Part shown: piece by piece, positions 1 through 24,573 of the stretch
Numbering within the stretch: position 1 is the stretch's first letter
How the letters are laid out: each line of letters begins with the position of its first letter
IMG/VR virus record: IMGVR_UViG_2554235189_000017
Location: 1 to 38,614 of that record
DNA length: 38,614 nucleotides
DNA from: a virus
Lineage: Duplodnaviria > Heunggongvirae > Uroviricota > Caudoviricetes
Strand: one strand, 5' to 3'
Position numbers and translations under genes: made by a program
Notes under the pieces: generated by a model
What the model was told of the DNA's origin: nothing
Seen by the model: only the letters and a program-made list of their open reading frames with translations
The model's database searches: none

Positions 1-207
1 TTTACGCACACCGTATACCTGGTGATTTTCATCGTATACGCGCTGTATCTCTTTCTTCAGCCAGTCATCGTGCTGCGCACGGGCACTGCGTTTATCCGGA
101 TGATGTCGCTGTTGCTGACAATGGTAATACGTTGACGGGGCAATATGCAGTTCGCTGCATACCGGTCCGACCCCGTACTGCTCACGCAGCTTATCCAGCA
201 GTGGCAT
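1..207 (-). CDS. IS3-family transposase OrfB, N-terminal part (partial, continues past window start)
   Basis: ATG at 207-205 overlaps orfA stop; translation [23 protein letters not shown]... resembles IS3-family OrfB N-termini. Confidence 0.7.
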   Translation of the reverse strand, partial: MPLLDKLREQYGVGPVCSELHIAPSTYYHCQQQRHHPDKRSARAQHDDWLKKEIQRVYDENHQVYGVRK

Positions 208-533
208 TATTTTTTCCAGAGGCGGTCGAACTCCGCCTTCGCAAAATAAGCGGAAGCCTGGCGAAGGATATCGTTACTGCGGCGCAGTTCACGATTTTCA
301 CGTTCCAGCTCTTTCAGACGCTGACGTTCAGCGGTGGTGAGTCCACCATCACCACTCCCGGTATCCCGCTCATGCTGGCGAACCCAGACACGCAGAGTCT
401 CCGGCGTACAGCCAATCTTTGGGGCAATGGAACAAATTGCCGCCCACTGTGAGTCATATTCATCCTGACTTTCCAGAACCATACGAATCGCCCGCTGACG
501 GACTTCGGGGGAAAAACGAGTATTTTTAGTCAT
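207..533 (-). CDS. IS3-family transposase OrfA (HTH DNA-binding subunit)
   Basis: 108 aa [22 protein letters not shown]...[30 protein letters not shown], recalled as near-identical to IS629/IS3411 OrfA. Confidence 0.85.
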
Positions 534-2988: not shown

Positions 2989-3091
2989 GTTAAATCTCCA
3001 GATAGTCGCAGCACCCGTTGCGCCGCATATCCGGTTATTTTATTACCTAAAAACCATATATGGATAAGCAACCCATAAATACGAACAGATA

Positions 3092-3508: not shown

Positions 3509-3577
3509 GCCATAGTAATCGGGCACTGGCAAAATCCAGTGCCGGGATTGGCGTCCCGAGTTACTAAGTGGCGCATA

Positions 3578-3600
3578 CCACGCCAGACGTGGTTTTTTTA
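3578..3600 (+). terminator. Putative rho-independent terminator (CCACG-loop-CGTGG + T7)
   Basis: Short GC stem followed by TTTTTTT. Confidence 0.45.
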
Positions 3601-3755
3601 TGCGTTAAGCACAGCCATATCCGAATTATGGTGGGCTGGGCAGGGGTCCGAAAGGACGCCGGTACCACTTAGGCCGGTACGCCAACCTTGTCCAGTTCAC
3701 CACCAGTAATTGGCGTTGCGGTGGTGATTAAAATCACTAAGTGGAGATAACCACC

Positions 3756-19814: not shown

Positions 19815-20111
19815 TCACTCCTGTTCACTGGCCTCTTTGGCCATCTTCAAATACTGTTCAGGGCAATGCGCCATAACGCGCTGAAACAGTTCCAGCGCCA
19901 GATTGCGTTGCCCCTCATTAAATGCCATTGCCATAGCGTCCATCGGTGAGATAGCGGAAAACACACGGCCTTTCTCCAGCACCGACCAGACAACGCGACG
20001 CCCCTGTTCACTGCTCATGACAAAGCGAATGTCATCAATTTCACGCTGCGCCATGTCACGTTGCTTACGGGCGTTTTCTTCTTTCAGTTGATCGTCTTCG
20101 TAATCTGTCAT
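19815..20111 (-). CDS. Small head-assembly-associated protein (98 aa)
   Basis: Overlaps the portal stop (ATGA); charged helical protein. Confidence 0.45.
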   Translation of the reverse strand: MTDYEDDQLKEENARKQRDMAQREIDDIRFVMSSEQGRRVVWSVLEKGRVFSAISPMDAMAMAFNEGQRNLALELFQRVMAHCPEQYLKMAKEASEQE

Positions 20112-21787
20112 TGTGATTGCCCACCCTGACCACTAACTGCATTCGCCATAGCTGACAAAACACTCGGATCCGAAGTTTTAGCTTCGCTTAGCGTCTTGGC
20201 ACCCTGTGCCGCCGCCATCCCCATCGCCATCATTTGTTGCTGCTGTTGCTGCTGTGCCCGTTGCTGGCGAGCCTGCTCAACCTGTTCCTGCGGAACAATG
20301 ACGGTTGGAGACACTCCGGACATATCAGCGAATGCATCGATCGCCTGATCAACGTTGAGTTTGTCGAGAGCTTCTGGTTTCGCTTGCGCAAGTTGACCAA
20401 TGAAGTTAACCGTGGACGCCAGACTGGACAGGCCGATAGACTTCTGCGCCTGAGCCATGACGGAAATGTATTCGACCTTCAGTGGCATGCCTTCCATCGC
20501 GTCAGGCGGTGGCGGCAGCATGTTTTTGCGCACCATCATCGAGAAAGAGCGGTCAATGAGAGGATTAAGACATTCGTCGTTCAGACGCTCCAGAACCGGC
20601 CCCAACATCAGAAGTTTTTCTTCTTTCATTTCGATCACCGCTTCAACAGGCATCGAGCGGGTATTGATGTTCTGCAACATCATGAACAGATCGACAAAGT
20701 AGGCGCTGTTAATGATTTGACGAGTGTCCTGAATGTCTGCCACCAAATCTGCTGTACTGGGGTTAACCAGATAAGCAGGCCTGAAGCCATCCTGACCAGT
20801 AATCTGATCGATATACGTGATGTCGCCAGGAAGAAGGGAGGCGCGCTGATTCTTGAGGGAAGTCGGAGCAACCATCGGCGGATTGGTGGCTTTATCAATC
20901 AACTGCGACTTGCGCTTCTGGAGAAGCTGCAATGCCTTAACAGGTCCAAGCGCCAGCATACCCGGGCATGATGATCCATAAACATCTTCGCCATTAACTT
21001 CCCAGCGCGGAGCCATAATTGGAAACTCATCGAATCCGGACTCACGCAACAACTTGTCGTTATCGCCACCAACCTCGTAATAAACCGATTTGAATGGCTT
21101 GTTCTTGCTATCCAGCTTCGATGTATCGCGGTCAATGTTCGGGTAAACCGAATGCATCACTTCGATCCACTTCTCGTAGGTGCCGCTTTCCCACATGCTT
21201 TTTACGGATTCGCTGACGTTATTTAGCCCGAACTCCTGAACAAGCTGACGAACAGTCATAGAGAACTTGCGAAAACAGGTGTCAACACTGCCACGAGGTG
21301 AGTTAGCCAGGTAGTAACTGCCTATCGGGAATGGCATTGTGCGAATGATGTCCTCGTCATCCTCCAGCACTGCCATTGCACCAGTGCTGTATGTGCCGAG
21401 GCTTCCGTATAACTGCGGCAGCGACTGATAGAGATTCGACTTATTGAACATATCGTTCATGCGGTTCTGCACCGCCTCAAGCCACAACTTAACAGGGCCA
21501 TAATCCATCATTTCAGGATCTGGCGTAGCCAGGCGAAACCACGGACGCGCGGGGCTTGTGATGCCTGACATCATGCCGCTGGCGAGAGTGCGCGCCGCCA
21601 TAGTCCCGGTCGAATCAATAATGCGTGTATTGCGTCGATCGTTACGGTTGACCTCAGAAGTCAGAAAGCGGGAACCACGCGGGTTGATGTAATCACTCAA
21701 CTCGCGCCAGTGCGGCTCGAACGACTGACGCTCGCTTTCAAGTTGTGCGAACTGTTTGTTCAATCGCTCTTTAGTTGTTTCCGCCAT
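20108..21787 (-). CDS. Portal protein (head-to-tail connector, podovirus type)
   Basis: 559 aa immediately downstream of the terminase region. Confidence 0.75.
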   Translation of the reverse strand: MAETTKERLNKQFAQLESERQSFEPHWRELSDYINPRGSRFLTSEVNRNDRRNTRIIDSTGTMAARTLASGMMSGITSPARPWFRLATPDPEMMDYGPVKLWLEAVQNRMNDMFNKSNLYQSLPQLYGSLGTYSTGAMAVLEDDEDIIRTMPFPIGSYYLANSPRGSVDTCFRKFSMTVRQLVQEFGLNNVSESVKSMWESGTYEKWIEVMHSVYPNIDRDTSKLDSKNKPFKSVYYEVGGDNDKLLRESGFDEFPIMAPRWEVNGEDVYGSSCPGMLALGPVKALQLLQKRKSQLIDKATNPPMVAPTSLKNQRASLLPGDITYIDQITGQDGFRPAYLVNPSTADLVADIQDTRQIINSAYFVDLFMMLQNINTRSMPVEAVIEMKEEKLLMLGPVLERLNDECLNPLIDRSFSMMVRKNMLPPPPDAMEGMPLKVEYISVMAQAQKSIGLSSLASTVNFIGQLAQAKPEALDKLNVDQAIDAFADMSGVSPTVIVPQEQVEQARQQRAQQQQQQQMMAMGMAAAQGAKTLSEAKTSDPSVLSAMANAVSGQGGQSQ

Positions 21788-21801: not shown

Positions 21802-22008
21802 TTACTGACCAAGCAGCGTTTTACCGCTGGTATTAGCGGTTGATGTGTCACCCTGAGAACCGGTAAGCAGCGTAGAACTACGACCAGCAGCAGCGCGACG
21901 GCGACGTGTTTCTTCGTCGCGGGCATCAACAACGGCGGCATCCTGCTCCTGTGGTGCTGCCTGAACTTCTGGTGTTGCAGGCACTGATGGTGAGCTACCC
22001 ATGCACAT
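21802..22008 (-). CDS. Possible small protein upstream of portal (68 aa, low complexity)
   Basis: Ends 14 nt before the portal ATG with GGAG between; could be non-coding. Confidence 0.25.
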   Translation of the reverse strand: MCMGSSPSVPATPEVQAAPQEQDAAVVDARDEETRRRRAAAGRSSTLLTGSQGDTSTANTSGKTLLGQ

Positions 22009-22098
22009 ATCAATGACTCCGTACGCAATTAAATTATTACCAATTTAACCACATATGATTTACTTATCGTAGGTAGTTGACATTTAACGCATAAATTA

Positions 22099-22113
22099 TT
22101 ACCTTTAAGGTAA
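22099..22113. promoter_or_regulatory. Operator-like perfect palindrome TTACCTTTAAGGTAA next to a TTGACA hexamer (22072-22077)
   Basis: 15-bp perfect palindrome, part of the dispersed motif family. Confidence 0.5.
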
Positions 22114-22435
22114 GTAAAGGGTTCATTCCGGTTATTAACCTGACTGGCTTGTCGTTAAATTGAACAGGTGGAGTGAGCTTTTATTTTGAGCAGTACGGCG
22201 TATGGCACATGCGCCGATAGCGGTATAGATACGTTTAATGGGCACCCTCCCTTGCTCGGGCAAACGAACCAGGTAGCCGGAATGTGCAAGTCGAGCGGTT
22301 TTATTCCGCGCACGGGGATTCACCATCCCGGCGATTCGGTGTGACGCCTCGGAAGAGACGAGGGTACAACGATGAGAGCATTTATGGAGCCGCGACAAAG
22401 TGTGGTGCCTTAACAGGCTAAGTGCTCTCAGCGTT

Positions 22436-22512
22436 GTGGCATTAGCTCAGTTGGACAGAGCAACCGCCTTCTAAGCGGTTGGTCGCAGGTTCGAATCCTG
22501 CATGCCACGCCA
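22436..22512 (+). tRNA. tRNA-Arg (anticodon UCU), phage-encoded
   Basis: Hand-folded cloverleaf: acceptor GTGGCAT/ATGCCAC, D-arm GCTC...GAGC, anticodon loop CTTCTAA, T-arm GCAGG-TTCGAAT-CCTGC, encoded CCA. Confidence 0.85.
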
Positions 22513-22556
22513 GAATCACGCCTAAGGACCGTGATGCCAGAAGTTCCAGGTGCTTG

Positions 22557-22598
22557 GCGGTGATGGTTTCCCTTGAAGGACTATCACCGCCCTTTTTA
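22557..22598 (+). terminator. Rho-independent terminator downstream of tRNA
   Basis: GGCGGTGAT...ATCACCGCC stem then CTTTTTA. Confidence 0.6.
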
Positions 22599-22674
22599 CA
22601 GCAGGACGCCATTGCGATGACTTCATGCTGTAAACCAGTACAGCCACGGAAGGCATAACTCATTGCTTCCAGTT

Positions 22675-22698
22675 CGCCCGGTTCGCCGGGCATTTTTT
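22675..22698 (+). terminator. Rho-independent terminator/attenuator 12 nt upstream of the DUF2829-like gene
   Basis: GCCCGG-TTCG-CCGGGC hairpin followed by ATTTTTTT, then AAGGTGAG RBS and ATG 22711. Confidence 0.7.
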
Positions 22699-22710
22699 TA
22701 AGGTGAGATT

Positions 22711-23007
22711 ATGAGCGAAACATCAACAGTATCTTTCTCCACTGCTTTGTCATCACTCAAAGATGGTAAGCGCATTGCACGTGCCGGATGGAATGGCAAA
22801 GGCATGTATCTGCAACTGGTTAAGCCACCGCAATCGGCCACTCCGAACGATTGGCGATTTGACGTTACATGCGGTGACGAGTATACATTTGTACCTGGCG
22901 TTAAACTTCTACCGTGGATTGGGATGAAAACTGCTGACGGTTGCTTTGTACCGTGGCTGGCATCTCAAACCGATATGCTATCTGATGACTGGATTGTAAT
23001 TCAATAA
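22711..23007 (+). CDS. DUF2829-like small protein (98 aa), candidate Tad2-type anti-Thoeris sponge
   Basis: ARAGWNGKGMYLQL near N-terminus and WLASQTDMLSDDW near C-terminus match my recollection of DUF2829; opposite strand to flanking late genes. Confidence 0.5.
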   Translation: MSETSTVSFSTALSSLKDGKRIARAGWNGKGMYLQLVKPPQSATPNDWRFDVTCGDEYTFVPGVKLLPWIGMKTADGCFVPWLASQTDMLSDDWIVIQ

Positions 23008-23026: not shown

Positions 23027-23055
23027 CAGCCAGCCTATGAGCTGGCTTTGTTTTA
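23027..23055 (+). terminator. Rho-independent terminator after the DUF2829-like gene
   Basis: CAGCCAGC-loop-GCTGGCT stem followed by TTGTTTTA. Confidence 0.6.
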
Positions 23056-23097: not shown

Positions 23098-24573
23098 TTA
23101 AGCATAGGGATCGTAATCTGTAATGGCCTTGCCTTGCTGGTTCTGCTGCCCGGGAATTCGCAGACGCTTAGACACAGGGAACGCAAACGTCAGCAGTAGC
23201 GCATCGCCTTTACCCGGCGAACGCCCAAGCCGCTCCTTGATATCTTCCTTCGGTTCGATAACGATTTTACCGTCCACGCGAACTTTGTACTCTGCCGCCG
23301 ACAGATCGTCCGCTGTTTCCTGGTCATCCAGCATCCCGCCCAACCTCAGCCATGTCTTGCATGAGTTGAACATCTCCCCGCGCTTGTTGAGCATCTGAGG
23401 GTCAGTTGACGCACCACCGAACGGAACAAGTTGCCATGTGCGCCCCCAGCCGTCACCGATTGACTTCAGACCGGTTCCGTAACCGAAGTCGATGAACACC
23501 GCGTCAGCCTGATACTGGTCTTCAAAGTCAGCGATACGCTTCGCCATAATCAGATCGTCGGTAGTCTTGTTGCCAGTCCACAGCACCTTACTGTGTAGCC
23601 CCTGCCGCAGGTATATCACCGCGTCATCAACGCCTGAATATGCCGGGTCAACACCGATTATCACCGGAGCATGCGCCACCTGCGCAGCGGTTACCACCCG
23701 TTTCATTGCCTCATCAGTAAGACCGGTAGGGATAAACTGCAATTCAGATGCATCAGGGAATATGCCGCGCACACGGATTTTAACGAAGTCGCTGTCTTCC
23801 CCGTAGTCATCAACCCATTTCTGCAACTGCTGTTTGTTAGTGCCTTCCACCGTTCGGCTGTCAATCTGCGCAGTTTTCCAGCGGTGTTTATATTTGCGGA
23901 AACATTCGCGGAAACGTCCGGTATTACGCGTCGGGTTTCCGAACGCCACCCAGATAATCTCAGTGTCTTCGTCCGTTAGTGCACCCTCGGCAACTTCCCA
24001 CACCAGATCCGCAATGTTCGACGCTTCATCGAATACCACGATGATGCGTTTGCGCTCGTTGTGTAGTCCGGCGAATGCCTCAGTGTTGTGCTCAGACCAG
24101 GGGATTGCGTCAGCTCGCCACCGCTTGTCGTGTCCAGGATCATTGCTGTACATCGCGGTAGCGGTACAGGTAAACCAGTCTTTCGTGATAGCAAGGTTCG
24201 ACCACTTGATAATTTCCGGCCAGGTCTTCGTTCGTAGCTGGTTGTCGGTGTTGGCGGTCACCACGACCTTACAATCCTCGCAAGTGGACATGCCCCAGTT
24301 GATCAGCATTGAGATGAATGCGGATTTACCAATACCGTGACCCGAAGCGCGTGCCAGCATAAGCGGCTGATAGCGAGTCTCTGGATTCTGCAGGTGATCA
24401 CGTATCTCTCGGAACGCATCAGCCTGCCACTGACGTGGACCGGTGGCATGTGCCAGTTCAGTCCCATCTTCCCCCCACGGGAACGCATAGAGGGCATAGC
24501 CAAGCGGATCGTGAGTGAACCCTGCAATATCCTCGATCAACTGCTCTTCAGGAGATAACGCTGCATCTGTCAC
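23098..24573 (-). CDS. terL: Terminase large subunit
   Basis: 491 aa with ATPase-like N-terminal region (GHGIGKS) and nuclease-like C-terminal region; ATGA overlap with terS. Confidence 0.8.
   Translation of the reverse strand: MTDAALSPEEQLIEDIAGFTHDPLGYALYAFPWGEDGTELAHATGPRQWQADAFREIRDHLQNPETRYQPLMLARASGHGIGKSAFISMLINWGMSTCEDCKVVVTANTDNQLRTKTWPEIIKWSNLAITKDWFTCTATAMYSNDPGHDKRWRADAIPWSEHNTEAFAGLHNERKRIIVVFDEASNIADLVWEVAEGALTDEDTEIIWVAFGNPTRNTGRFRECFRKYKHRWKTAQIDSRTVEGTNKQQLQKWVDDYGEDSDFVKIRVRGIFPDASELQFIPTGLTDEAMKRVVTAAQVAHAPVIIGVDPAYSGVDDAVIYLRQGLHSKVLWTGNKTTDDLIMAKRIADFEDQYQADAVFIDFGYGTGLKSIGDGWGRTWQLVPFGGASTDPQMLNKRGEMFNSCKTWLRLGGMLDDQETADDLSAAEYKVRVDGKIVIEPKEDIKERLGRSPGKGDALLLTFAFPVSKRLRIPGQQNQQGKAITDYDPYA

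Follow-up and report, generated by a model that had tools for sequence, protein, structure and literature searches.

Two kinds of structured phage RNA are among the closest known counterparts of the element described here. ROOL and GOLLD are structured RNAs of phages and prophages whose function is unexplained; they often lie beside tRNAs, with which they are possibly co-transcribed (PMC12286853, PMC5737381). The put RNA of phage HK022 is about 70 nt long, is composed of two stem-loops and is present in two related copies per phage, after the promoters PL and PR (PMC9378689). It makes RNA polymerase resistant to terminators via the zinc-binding domain of the beta' subunit. Here we analyzed a stretch of 38,614 nt, record IMGVR_UViG_2554235189_000017 of IMG/VR (hereafter the window), that belongs to a phiV10/epsilon15-like podophage of the genus Uetakevirus and is 97–98% identical to phiV10 across the region of interest. 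This region includes a structured RNA, which we term E, at 22195..22435 on the plus strand. E apparently represents an unannotated structured RNA family of temperate enterobacterial phages. The reading that we favor, with the arguments for and against it about evenly balanced, is that E is a phage RNA gene that would be freed by tRNA-processing enzymes and act on its own, and is not a regulatory leader. We prefer this reading because the boundaries of E are discrete, because it is flanked by tRNAs or by a tRNA-like module (X), and because a terminator is often carried along with it.

Extent, distribution and structure of E

An earlier note on this DNA had proposed a structured non-coding leader of about 300 nt between a promoter and a tRNA gene. 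The region was found to be both non-coding and structured, but its conserved part is confined to 22195–22435. E is a discrete block: homology with the lambdoid phage mEp460 and with P1 begins at 22195 and stops at the start of the tRNA, and the limits of cross-phage homology are 22195 and 22439. In BLAST searches, 22195–22439 recurs at 75–83% identity in unrelated phages. These include SfV-like lambdoids (mEp460, cdtI and 2H10), Stx2c and Stx2a phages, P1, P7, D6, SJ46 and RCS47, phages of Klebsiella, Enterobacter and Salmonella, and one Stenotrophomonas phage. All contexts that were inspected are phage or prophage. E is carried by 1840 of 5426 complete E. coli genomes, and its invariant 19-mer (GGTAGCCGGAATGTGCAAG, 22272–22290, plus strand), which is unvaried in every BLAST homologue, is present in at least 120 IMG/VR viral contigs. 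A search with our covariance model R1 (expectation value ≤ 10) detected a single copy each in the window and in the complete mEp460 genome.

A scan of species-level genomes also returned matches in metagenome-assembled genomes of Myxococcota, Planctomycetota and Alphaproteobacteria. These were rejected as chance matches in G+C-rich genes, because every other conserved block of E is absent from them. A match in a 1.7-kb contig assigned to Bacillota was discarded as well, as its sequence is of the enterobacterial type and it is probably mis-binned.

No RefSeq annotation for E was found in 40 hits sampled across the identity range; apart from a tRNA-Arg edge and a single hypothetical protein, no feature lies under these matches. 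Most of the phage records found by BLAST have no annotation on E, and the others have a hypothetical open reading frame (ORF) or the edge of a tRNA. Comparison of 21990–22730 with the 4227 families of Rfam 15 (cmscan, expectation value ≤ 10) gave only the tRNA and weak terminator-like matches, and neither the ROOL nor the GOLLD model matched E at this threshold. A scan of the whole window at the Rfam gathering thresholds had no match for E, nor did a scan of the loci L140, L001 (mEp460) and L157 (Buttiauxella) at an expectation value ≤ 1 match E or X. A full-text literature search with an invariant 15-mer retrieved no paper, and literature on P1 ban, prophage structured RNAs and the Pas small RNAs gave no description of E; subscription journals were outside the reach of both searches.

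The predicted structure of E, all on the plus strand, starts with the hairpin P1 (22196–22216) and the base helix of P2, in which 22224–22228 pairs with 22269–22273. The invariant 19-mer is followed by a variable hairpin (22291–22314), by P4 (22315–22329, loop TTCACCA) and by P5 (22347–22363, loop GAAGAGA). CACC in the P4 loop (22321–22324) forms a pseudoknot with GGTG (22338–22341), and P6, formed by 22367–22382 and 22421–22436, encloses an insert of 38 nt. P1, the P2 base, P4, P5 and the pseudoknot were tested on an alignment (A3) of 47 representatives with less than 93% identity, chosen from the collected copies of E. In this alignment 92% of the cells are paired, compared to 27–55% when the pairing partners are slid. 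Thirteen of the 28 pairs vary on both sides (102 cells), and none of 500 shuffles reached the observed covariation score. For example, the P1 pair 6–18 is G-C in 21 sequences and A-U in 25, and five sequences have A-U in place of C-G in the pseudoknot. The P6 insert is 38–172 nt long, and its helix occurs in two main compensating sequence types. Pairing reaches 95.3% on the plus strand and 83.6% on the minus strand, and 155 cells are G-U; the plus strand is therefore the RNA. The core comprises 162 positions of model R1, which scores the window copy at 130.7 bits. The Rfam scan and covariance folding that had been proposed as a check on the leader thus yielded no Rfam family, and a covarying structure that is conserved in the homologues.

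RNAalifold also proposed a long-range rod (GCACAU with AUGUGC) between the 5' region and the 19-mer. We did not adopt it, as it involves invariant columns only and is incompatible with the P1 hairpin, which covaries; E may adopt it as an alternative conformer. The P6 inserts of L013 (SPN1S) and of L008 and L009 (1720a-02 and Stx2a_1447) include two hairpins that resemble T arms, CTGGTTCAATTCCAG and GTCCGTTCGATTCGGAC. In seven loci (L007, L012, L039, L040, L078, L101 and L135) a different conserved domain, ATCAGCC...GCTTAGCGGGACTGGAAGAGTTACCACTTGGAGACGGTCC...GTCCTGGACAGTGGCG, substitutes for P6 downstream of P5. This domain may be another RNA module.

Conservation of this kind could in principle reflect a protein gene, a DNA site such as pac, att or an operator array, or chance, and hypothetical ORFs are in fact annotated over E (mEp460_037 and PhiV10p04). 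The leader and E were found to include short ORFs only, as had been noticed before, and no ORF is conserved in 22115–22435. The spacing between the invariant blocks of E takes all values modulo 3 among the 47 homologues, and the frame of an 87-amino-acid minus-strand ORF of the window is interrupted by stop codons in 29 of 46 homologues. A protein-coding E is ruled out by a frame that is not conserved and by stops in most homologues, and the compensatory changes and strand-specific G-U pairs indicate RNA. Furthermore, PhiV10p04 is antisense to the tRNA. We therefore give an origin of the conservation in coding, in a DNA site or in chance almost no credence. The hypothetical proteins annotated on E or antisense to the tRNA (mEp460_037, PhiV10p04, SPN1S_0004 and those in similar records) are probably spurious.

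Promoter, tRNA and terminators around E

A sigma-70-type early promoter was located at 22077..22105 on the plus strand, with the −35 hexamer TTGACA (22077–22082) 17 nt from the −10 hexamer TACCTT (22100–22105), and transcription is predicted to start near 22112. The −10 hexamer agrees with the consensus at three of six positions, A2 and T6 being kept, and for this reason the promoter was not listed by a generic scan. The TTGACA hexamer and the operator-like palindrome had already been pointed out upstream of the leader. This layout, TTGACA-N17-TACC(T/C)T within a palindrome, is kept in 42 loci (24 distinct sequences), in which the spacer is fixed at 17 nt but variable in sequence and the promoter always faces the RNA. 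The palindrome, ATTACCTTTAAGGTAAG (22098..22114, strand not assigned), overlaps the −10 hexamer. With up to two mismatches, the operator ATTACCnnnnnGGTAAT has 12 copies in the window compared to 0.99 expected, a number reached by none of 100 shuffles. The hexamers at 17-nt spacing and the overlapping, repeated operator are those of a repressor-controlled sigma-70 promoter, as which we predict this site to act.

The operator copies are located at window positions 3091, 3471, 4532, 12824, 22098, 25165, 25183, 29765, 29827, 32158, 32870 and 32932, and some of them precede structural operons of the prophage. This scatter suggests that the repressor acts directly on many promoters, like C1 in P1. 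In the epsilon15 record the homologous operator is labelled 'repressor, lysogeny', and other equivalent sites are annotated too.

The 5' leader that precedes E (22112..22194, plus strand) is specific to Uetakevirus and is predicted to form a long hairpin (minimum free energy −22.4 kcal/mol, z = −1.99). In the epsilon15 record, the stretch homologous to it carries the annotation of an RNase III site, which is placed on the other strand. In the Buttiauxella locus L157 the leader is absent, and the RNA lies directly 3' of the operator.

At its 3' end E abuts tRNA-Arg(UCU) with an encoded CCA (22436..22512, plus strand), the first base of which also closes P6. ARAGORN (anticodon tct) and Rfam (RF00005, 73.3 bits against a gathering threshold of 29) agree on this gene, in line with the earlier assignment. 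The same tRNA lies 3' of E on the same strand in 28 of 133 loci and abuts it in most; in four tRNA-Arg loci with longer P6 inserts it starts about 55–65 nt further from the core. A tRNA(CAU) is located 14 nt upstream of E in another 17 loci, so that a same-strand tRNA adjoins E in 45 of the 133.

Other loci have the tRNA-like module X in the position of the tRNA. Fifty-two copies, 85–210 nt in length, were found in the fetched loci; mEp460 has one (L001 3238–3375), and L140 has two, in the order X-E-X. X combines an invariant acceptor-like stem of 9 bp (GUUGUGGUG with CACCACAAC) and a highly variable center with two hairpins, one D-like and the other T-like, of which the latter abuts the 3' acceptor strand. 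Its few compensatory variants are confined to the D-like and T-like hairpins.

This constant same-strand adjacency to tRNAs or tRNA-like modules, together with the invariant, pseudoknotted core, would suit a ribozyme or a tRNA-binding RNA, such as a T-box-like binder or a processing aid, that serves the neighboring RNAs. By inspection, the P5 loop GAAGAGA holds AGA, the codon of tRNA-Arg(UCU), and UCACCA in the P4 loop looks like the 3' end of a tRNA. However, the same loops are kept beside tRNA-Ile in P1 and where no tRNA is present, and no Rfam T-box, RNase P or ribozyme family matched at an expectation value ≤ 10. We consider such a tRNA-directed function distinctly improbable.

A terminator scan identified four terminator-like sites, compared to 1.8 expected. 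Two of them precede the protein-coding gene that follows, as the earlier note had claimed; their G+C-rich hairpins and T-runs are those of intrinsic terminators, as which they are predicted to act. T1 (GGCGGTGATGG...CTATCACCGCC followed by CTTTTTAC; 22556..22599, plus strand) has a 14-bp stem at 22556–22591. Homologues of T1, GGCGGT...ACCGC(C/T)CTTTTTAC (GGCGGT...ACCGCYCTTTTTAC) with a covarying stem interior, were found after E-tRNA or E-X in 65 of 142 loci, of podophages and lambdoids alike. What travels together in those loci appears to be E, then a tRNA or X, then T1.

A structured RNA upstream of terminators also calls to mind a riboswitch leader or an attenuator of the classical kind, where the choice between alternative folds would determine whether T1 or T2 forms, and attenuation was among the controls suggested for this locus. 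The long-range GCACAU/AUGUGC pairing would provide a competitor of the P1 hairpin. Yet E ends at the tRNA, and the 120 nt between it and T1 are taken up by the whole tRNA and a 43-nt trailer; E overlaps neither T1 nor T2, and no segment of it is able to pair with their stems. A classical attenuator is excluded by this geometry. Moreover, the competing pairing consists of invariant columns while covariation backs the P1 hairpin, and the module is also found ahead of other genes or without a terminator behind it. Attenuation thus has very little probability left to it.

T1 is followed by a conserved spacer (22600..22675, plus strand) with two predicted hairpins, which is kept in epsilon15 and L140. 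The fold of 22592–22700 includes the two hairpins and T2 (z = −3.15), and none of 200 shuffles folds as well. On this model, 22592–22700 could be a small RNA ending at T2; a promoter scan between T1 and T2 revealed none. T2 (GCCCGG-TTCG-CCGGGC followed by AT7; 22676..22699, plus strand) is formed by a stem-loop at 22676–22691 and a run of seven T at 22693–22699. Relatives have a compensatory variant, CCCAC-TTCG-GTGGG, in place of the CCCGG/CCGGG stem. The T-run is separated by 11 nt (12 in the earlier count) from the ATG at 22711, and the ribosome-binding site (RBS) AAGGTGAG is located between them (22700–22707, plus strand).

The gene behind T2 (22711–23007, plus strand) encodes a protein of 98 amino acids. 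It had been described as DUF2829-like, and the family match is strong (PF11195, E = 1.4e-24, 86.8 bits against a cut-off of 25, residues 8–97 aligned to positions 2–73 of the 73 of the profile), but the current Pfam name of this family is Tad2-like. Tad2 proteins sequester the signalling molecules of Thoeris and act as anti-Thoeris sponges (bioRxiv 10.1101/2023.05.01.538930). The window gene belongs to the same family, well above the PF11195 threshold; an anti-Thoeris role is predicted for it by family membership only, and it is one of several cargos.

The T2/RBS junction is conserved across relatives while the gene behind it varies. In about 20 Uetakevirus-type loci, the slot behind T2 holds Tad2-like genes, Phage_gp49_66, an HNH_3 endonuclease or members of at least five families without a Pfam match. 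By sequence comparison, the slot behind this conserved junction is a swappable accessory-gene site, and its varied genes are candidates for further anti-defense genes. The gene has indeed no room after T2 for a promoter of its own, and the slot is therefore most simply fed by read-through. The earlier view, that read-through of terminators is the only way in which this gene can be expressed, is the simplest reading of the layout, but in our grading the Tad2-like gene is probably, and not necessarily, expressed by read-through of T1 and T2.

The unit of promoter, E, tRNA and gene is a plus-strand insert amid minus-strand late genes. In Uetakeviruses, E is located between the genes for the large terminase (23098–24573, minus strand) and the portal protein (20108–21787, minus strand); a gp3-like ORF (21802–22008, minus strand) lies next to the latter. 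A further terminator, T3 (23028..23047, strand not assigned), is found between the convergent cargo and large terminase genes, and its homologous hairpin in the phiV10 record is annotated as a terminator on the terminase strand.

Elsewhere in the window, Rfam identified isrK and a C4 antisense RNA side by side (3523–3599 and 3624–3707, plus strand). This pair is an immI (c4-ant) immunity module of the P1/P7 type within a Uetakevirus-like prophage, and it is also present in mEp460 (L001 706–894). An ALIL pseudoknot (120 bits; 136–252, minus strand) is the frameshift signal of an IS3-family transposase and thus indicates an insertion sequence at the left edge of the window.

E in other phages and the case for antitermination

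The earlier note had considered the leader as a possible cis-acting RNA in the control of the Tad2-like gene. E is dedicated neither to this gene nor to this tRNA, as it is also found after OL/PL in lambdoids and, in P1, between tRNA-Ile and ban. A repressor-controlled early promoter precedes E in all three settings, at a short distance in podophages and lambdoids and at about 2.3 kb in P1.

In SfV-like lambdoids and Stx2c phages E follows just after OL/PL. The order in mEp460 is the cI stop codon, the cI terminator, two TTGC-N7-GCAA palindromes, a plausible PL and, about 40 nt further, E; a third such palindrome is located at OR. No promoter was seen in mEp460 between T1 and the first early-left gene. 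An N gene is neither annotated in mEp460 nor recognized among its early-left ORFs, and the first early-left protein lacks an N-like arginine-rich motif and matches no Pfam family. A lambda-type nut site, with boxA, boxB and N, was considered for E and rejected, as there is no N gene and an rrn-type boxA occurs in one locus only. In that locus, L092, a perfect rrn-type boxA (TGCTCTTTAACAA) is located about 125 nt after the core 15-mer of a truncated member of the family.

The P1 copy of E (71023–71204) is part of the C1-controlled ban operon, with tRNA-Ile before it and ban after it. No terminator precedes ban, and there is no Tad2-like gene at the E site.

In epsilon15 (L004 2040–2100), the first 60 or so nucleotides of E, comprising P1 and part of P2, are fused to the 3' half of T1. 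From this junction, epsilon15 is best described as a deletion derivative in which the rest of E and the tRNA were lost while T2 and the cargo gene remain.

These settings bear on the possibility that E is a cis-acting processive antiterminator like HK022 put, which would let polymerase ignore T1 and T2 or the early-left terminator. In mEp460, where a putative PL with cI-type operators lies about 40 nt upstream, E is placed as putL or nutL would be, and a strong terminator and an early-left operon without an annotated N gene come after it. In the window E precedes two strong terminators and a promoterless gene. Cleavage by RNase P would be compatible with such a role, since put RNA is active when untethered from its transcript (PMC9378689).

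However, the core of E, with 162 positions, at least five helices and a pseudoknot, differs from the two stem-loops and about 70 nt of put (PMC9378689), and a second copy that would correspond to putR was not detected by the covariance model (expectation value ≤ 10) in either the whole mEp460 genome or the window. In P1, about 2.3 kb of the operon precede E and no terminator precedes ban, and L140 has a tRNA-like X between promoter and E. The variable inserts and tRNA-like flanks resemble those of a stable RNA. In addition, T1 moves with E between phage types; that it accompanies E in podophages as well as in lambdoids fits a terminator at the end of an RNA gene better than one on which an antiterminator acts. 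The antitermination suggested for this locus therefore stays as a rival, one that we regard as unlikely.

E as a proposed RNA gene and its relation to known systems

According to the RNA-gene reading, the repressor would leave the operator at 22098–22114 and host RNA polymerase would start near 22112, producing a transcript of about 480 nt with the leader hairpin, E, tRNA-Arg and T1. RNase P processes the 5' ends of tRNAs, and a cut at that of tRNA-Arg, between 22435 and 22436, would free E as a stable RNA of about 240 nt. The freed E would then act on a component of the host that is conserved. Its invariant 19-mer and its constant tRNA-like partners would point to the translation or tRNA machinery, or to counter-defense. 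T1 and T2 would end most transcripts, and the minority that reads through would express the accessory gene behind T2, in this window the putative Tad2-like anti-Thoeris sponge.

Several observations weigh against this account, in which the release and the stability of E are predictions. The T1 motif was detected only in the 65 of 142 loci mentioned above, and P1-type copies, which have neither P6 nor T1, sit inside an operon just before ban. In SfV-like lambdoids, the only operator-bearing promoter that was found is upstream of E-X-T1, so that the early-left genes need read-through of T1, which also fits an antiterminator. Finally, the window copy of E may be slightly damaged. It has three private substitutions (22225 C>A, 22227 G>A and 22239 G>T) at positions where all 19 closest relatives, phiV10 included, have C, G and G. 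Those at 22225 and 22227 disrupt P2 pairs (31–88 and 33–86) that are otherwise intact in 46 of the 47 aligned sequences, and because of these two broken pairs this copy is possibly impaired.

We also put forward, as a tentative idea and one that we think rather improbable, that E founds a new class of large structured RNAs with which temperate enterobacterial phages, among them P1, Stx2c phages and phiV10, directly reprogram a core host machine in early lytic development. It could do so as an RNA-only processive antiterminator, far larger than put, that would carry polymerase past T1 and T2 and past the terminators in the early operons of N-less lambdoids, or by binding the ribosome, tRNA or a defense sensor.

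A pseudoknotted RNA of about 240 nt with an invariant core of 19 nt has apparently been overlooked in systems as heavily annotated as E. coli and the phages that infect it. About one in three complete E. coli genomes carries this RNA, as do the classical phage P1 and Shiga-toxin phages. Its placement under early promoters (first in the transcripts of podophages and lambdoids, mid-operon in P1), its tRNA-like partner and its Tad2-like neighbor suggest a role at the RNA level in host take-over or counter-defense. The position of E in lambdoids without an annotated N makes testable how such phages pass their early terminators. A covariance model for E would correct spurious ORFs in phage records, and the conserved T2/RBS slot is a hotspot in which to seek new accessory or anti-defense genes.

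Among described RNAs, putL and putR of HK022 share with E an origin at repressor-controlled early promoters of phages, and putL and the lambdoid E are both located just downstream of PL, ahead of terminators, in phages without an annotated N gene (PMC9378689). This position, just after an early promoter and before terminators, is seen in mEp460 and in the window and is absent in P1. E differs from put in its core of about 160 nt (240–330 nt in full), its pseudoknot, its single copy, its tRNA-like flanks and, often, a terminator of its own. We set the two apart by description, the HK022 record being too sparsely annotated to locate put.

E resembles ROOL and GOLLD in its phage setting and its adjacency to tRNAs, but it is two to three times smaller and comes from phages of Enterobacterales and not from Firmicutes, rumen or marine sources.

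The layout of the window has counterparts in the host. In the metY-rimP-nusA-infB and tRNA-tufB operons of E. coli, a promoter is followed by a tRNA, by one or more intrinsic terminators and by protein genes that are expressed by read-through, which in metY-rimP-nusA-infB is tuned by NusA. These operons are similar to the window in their layout but are not known to have a large structured RNA before the tRNA.

As for the ends of E, the c4 immunity RNAs of P1 and P7 and the CI RNA of P4 are cut from longer transcripts by RNase P. E may be likened to them, as well as to mitochondrial tRNA punctuation and to mascRNA, in that its ends would be made by tRNA-processing enzymes. RNAs of the c4 and CI type, however, are short antisense regulators with known targets, whereas E is larger and pseudoknotted.

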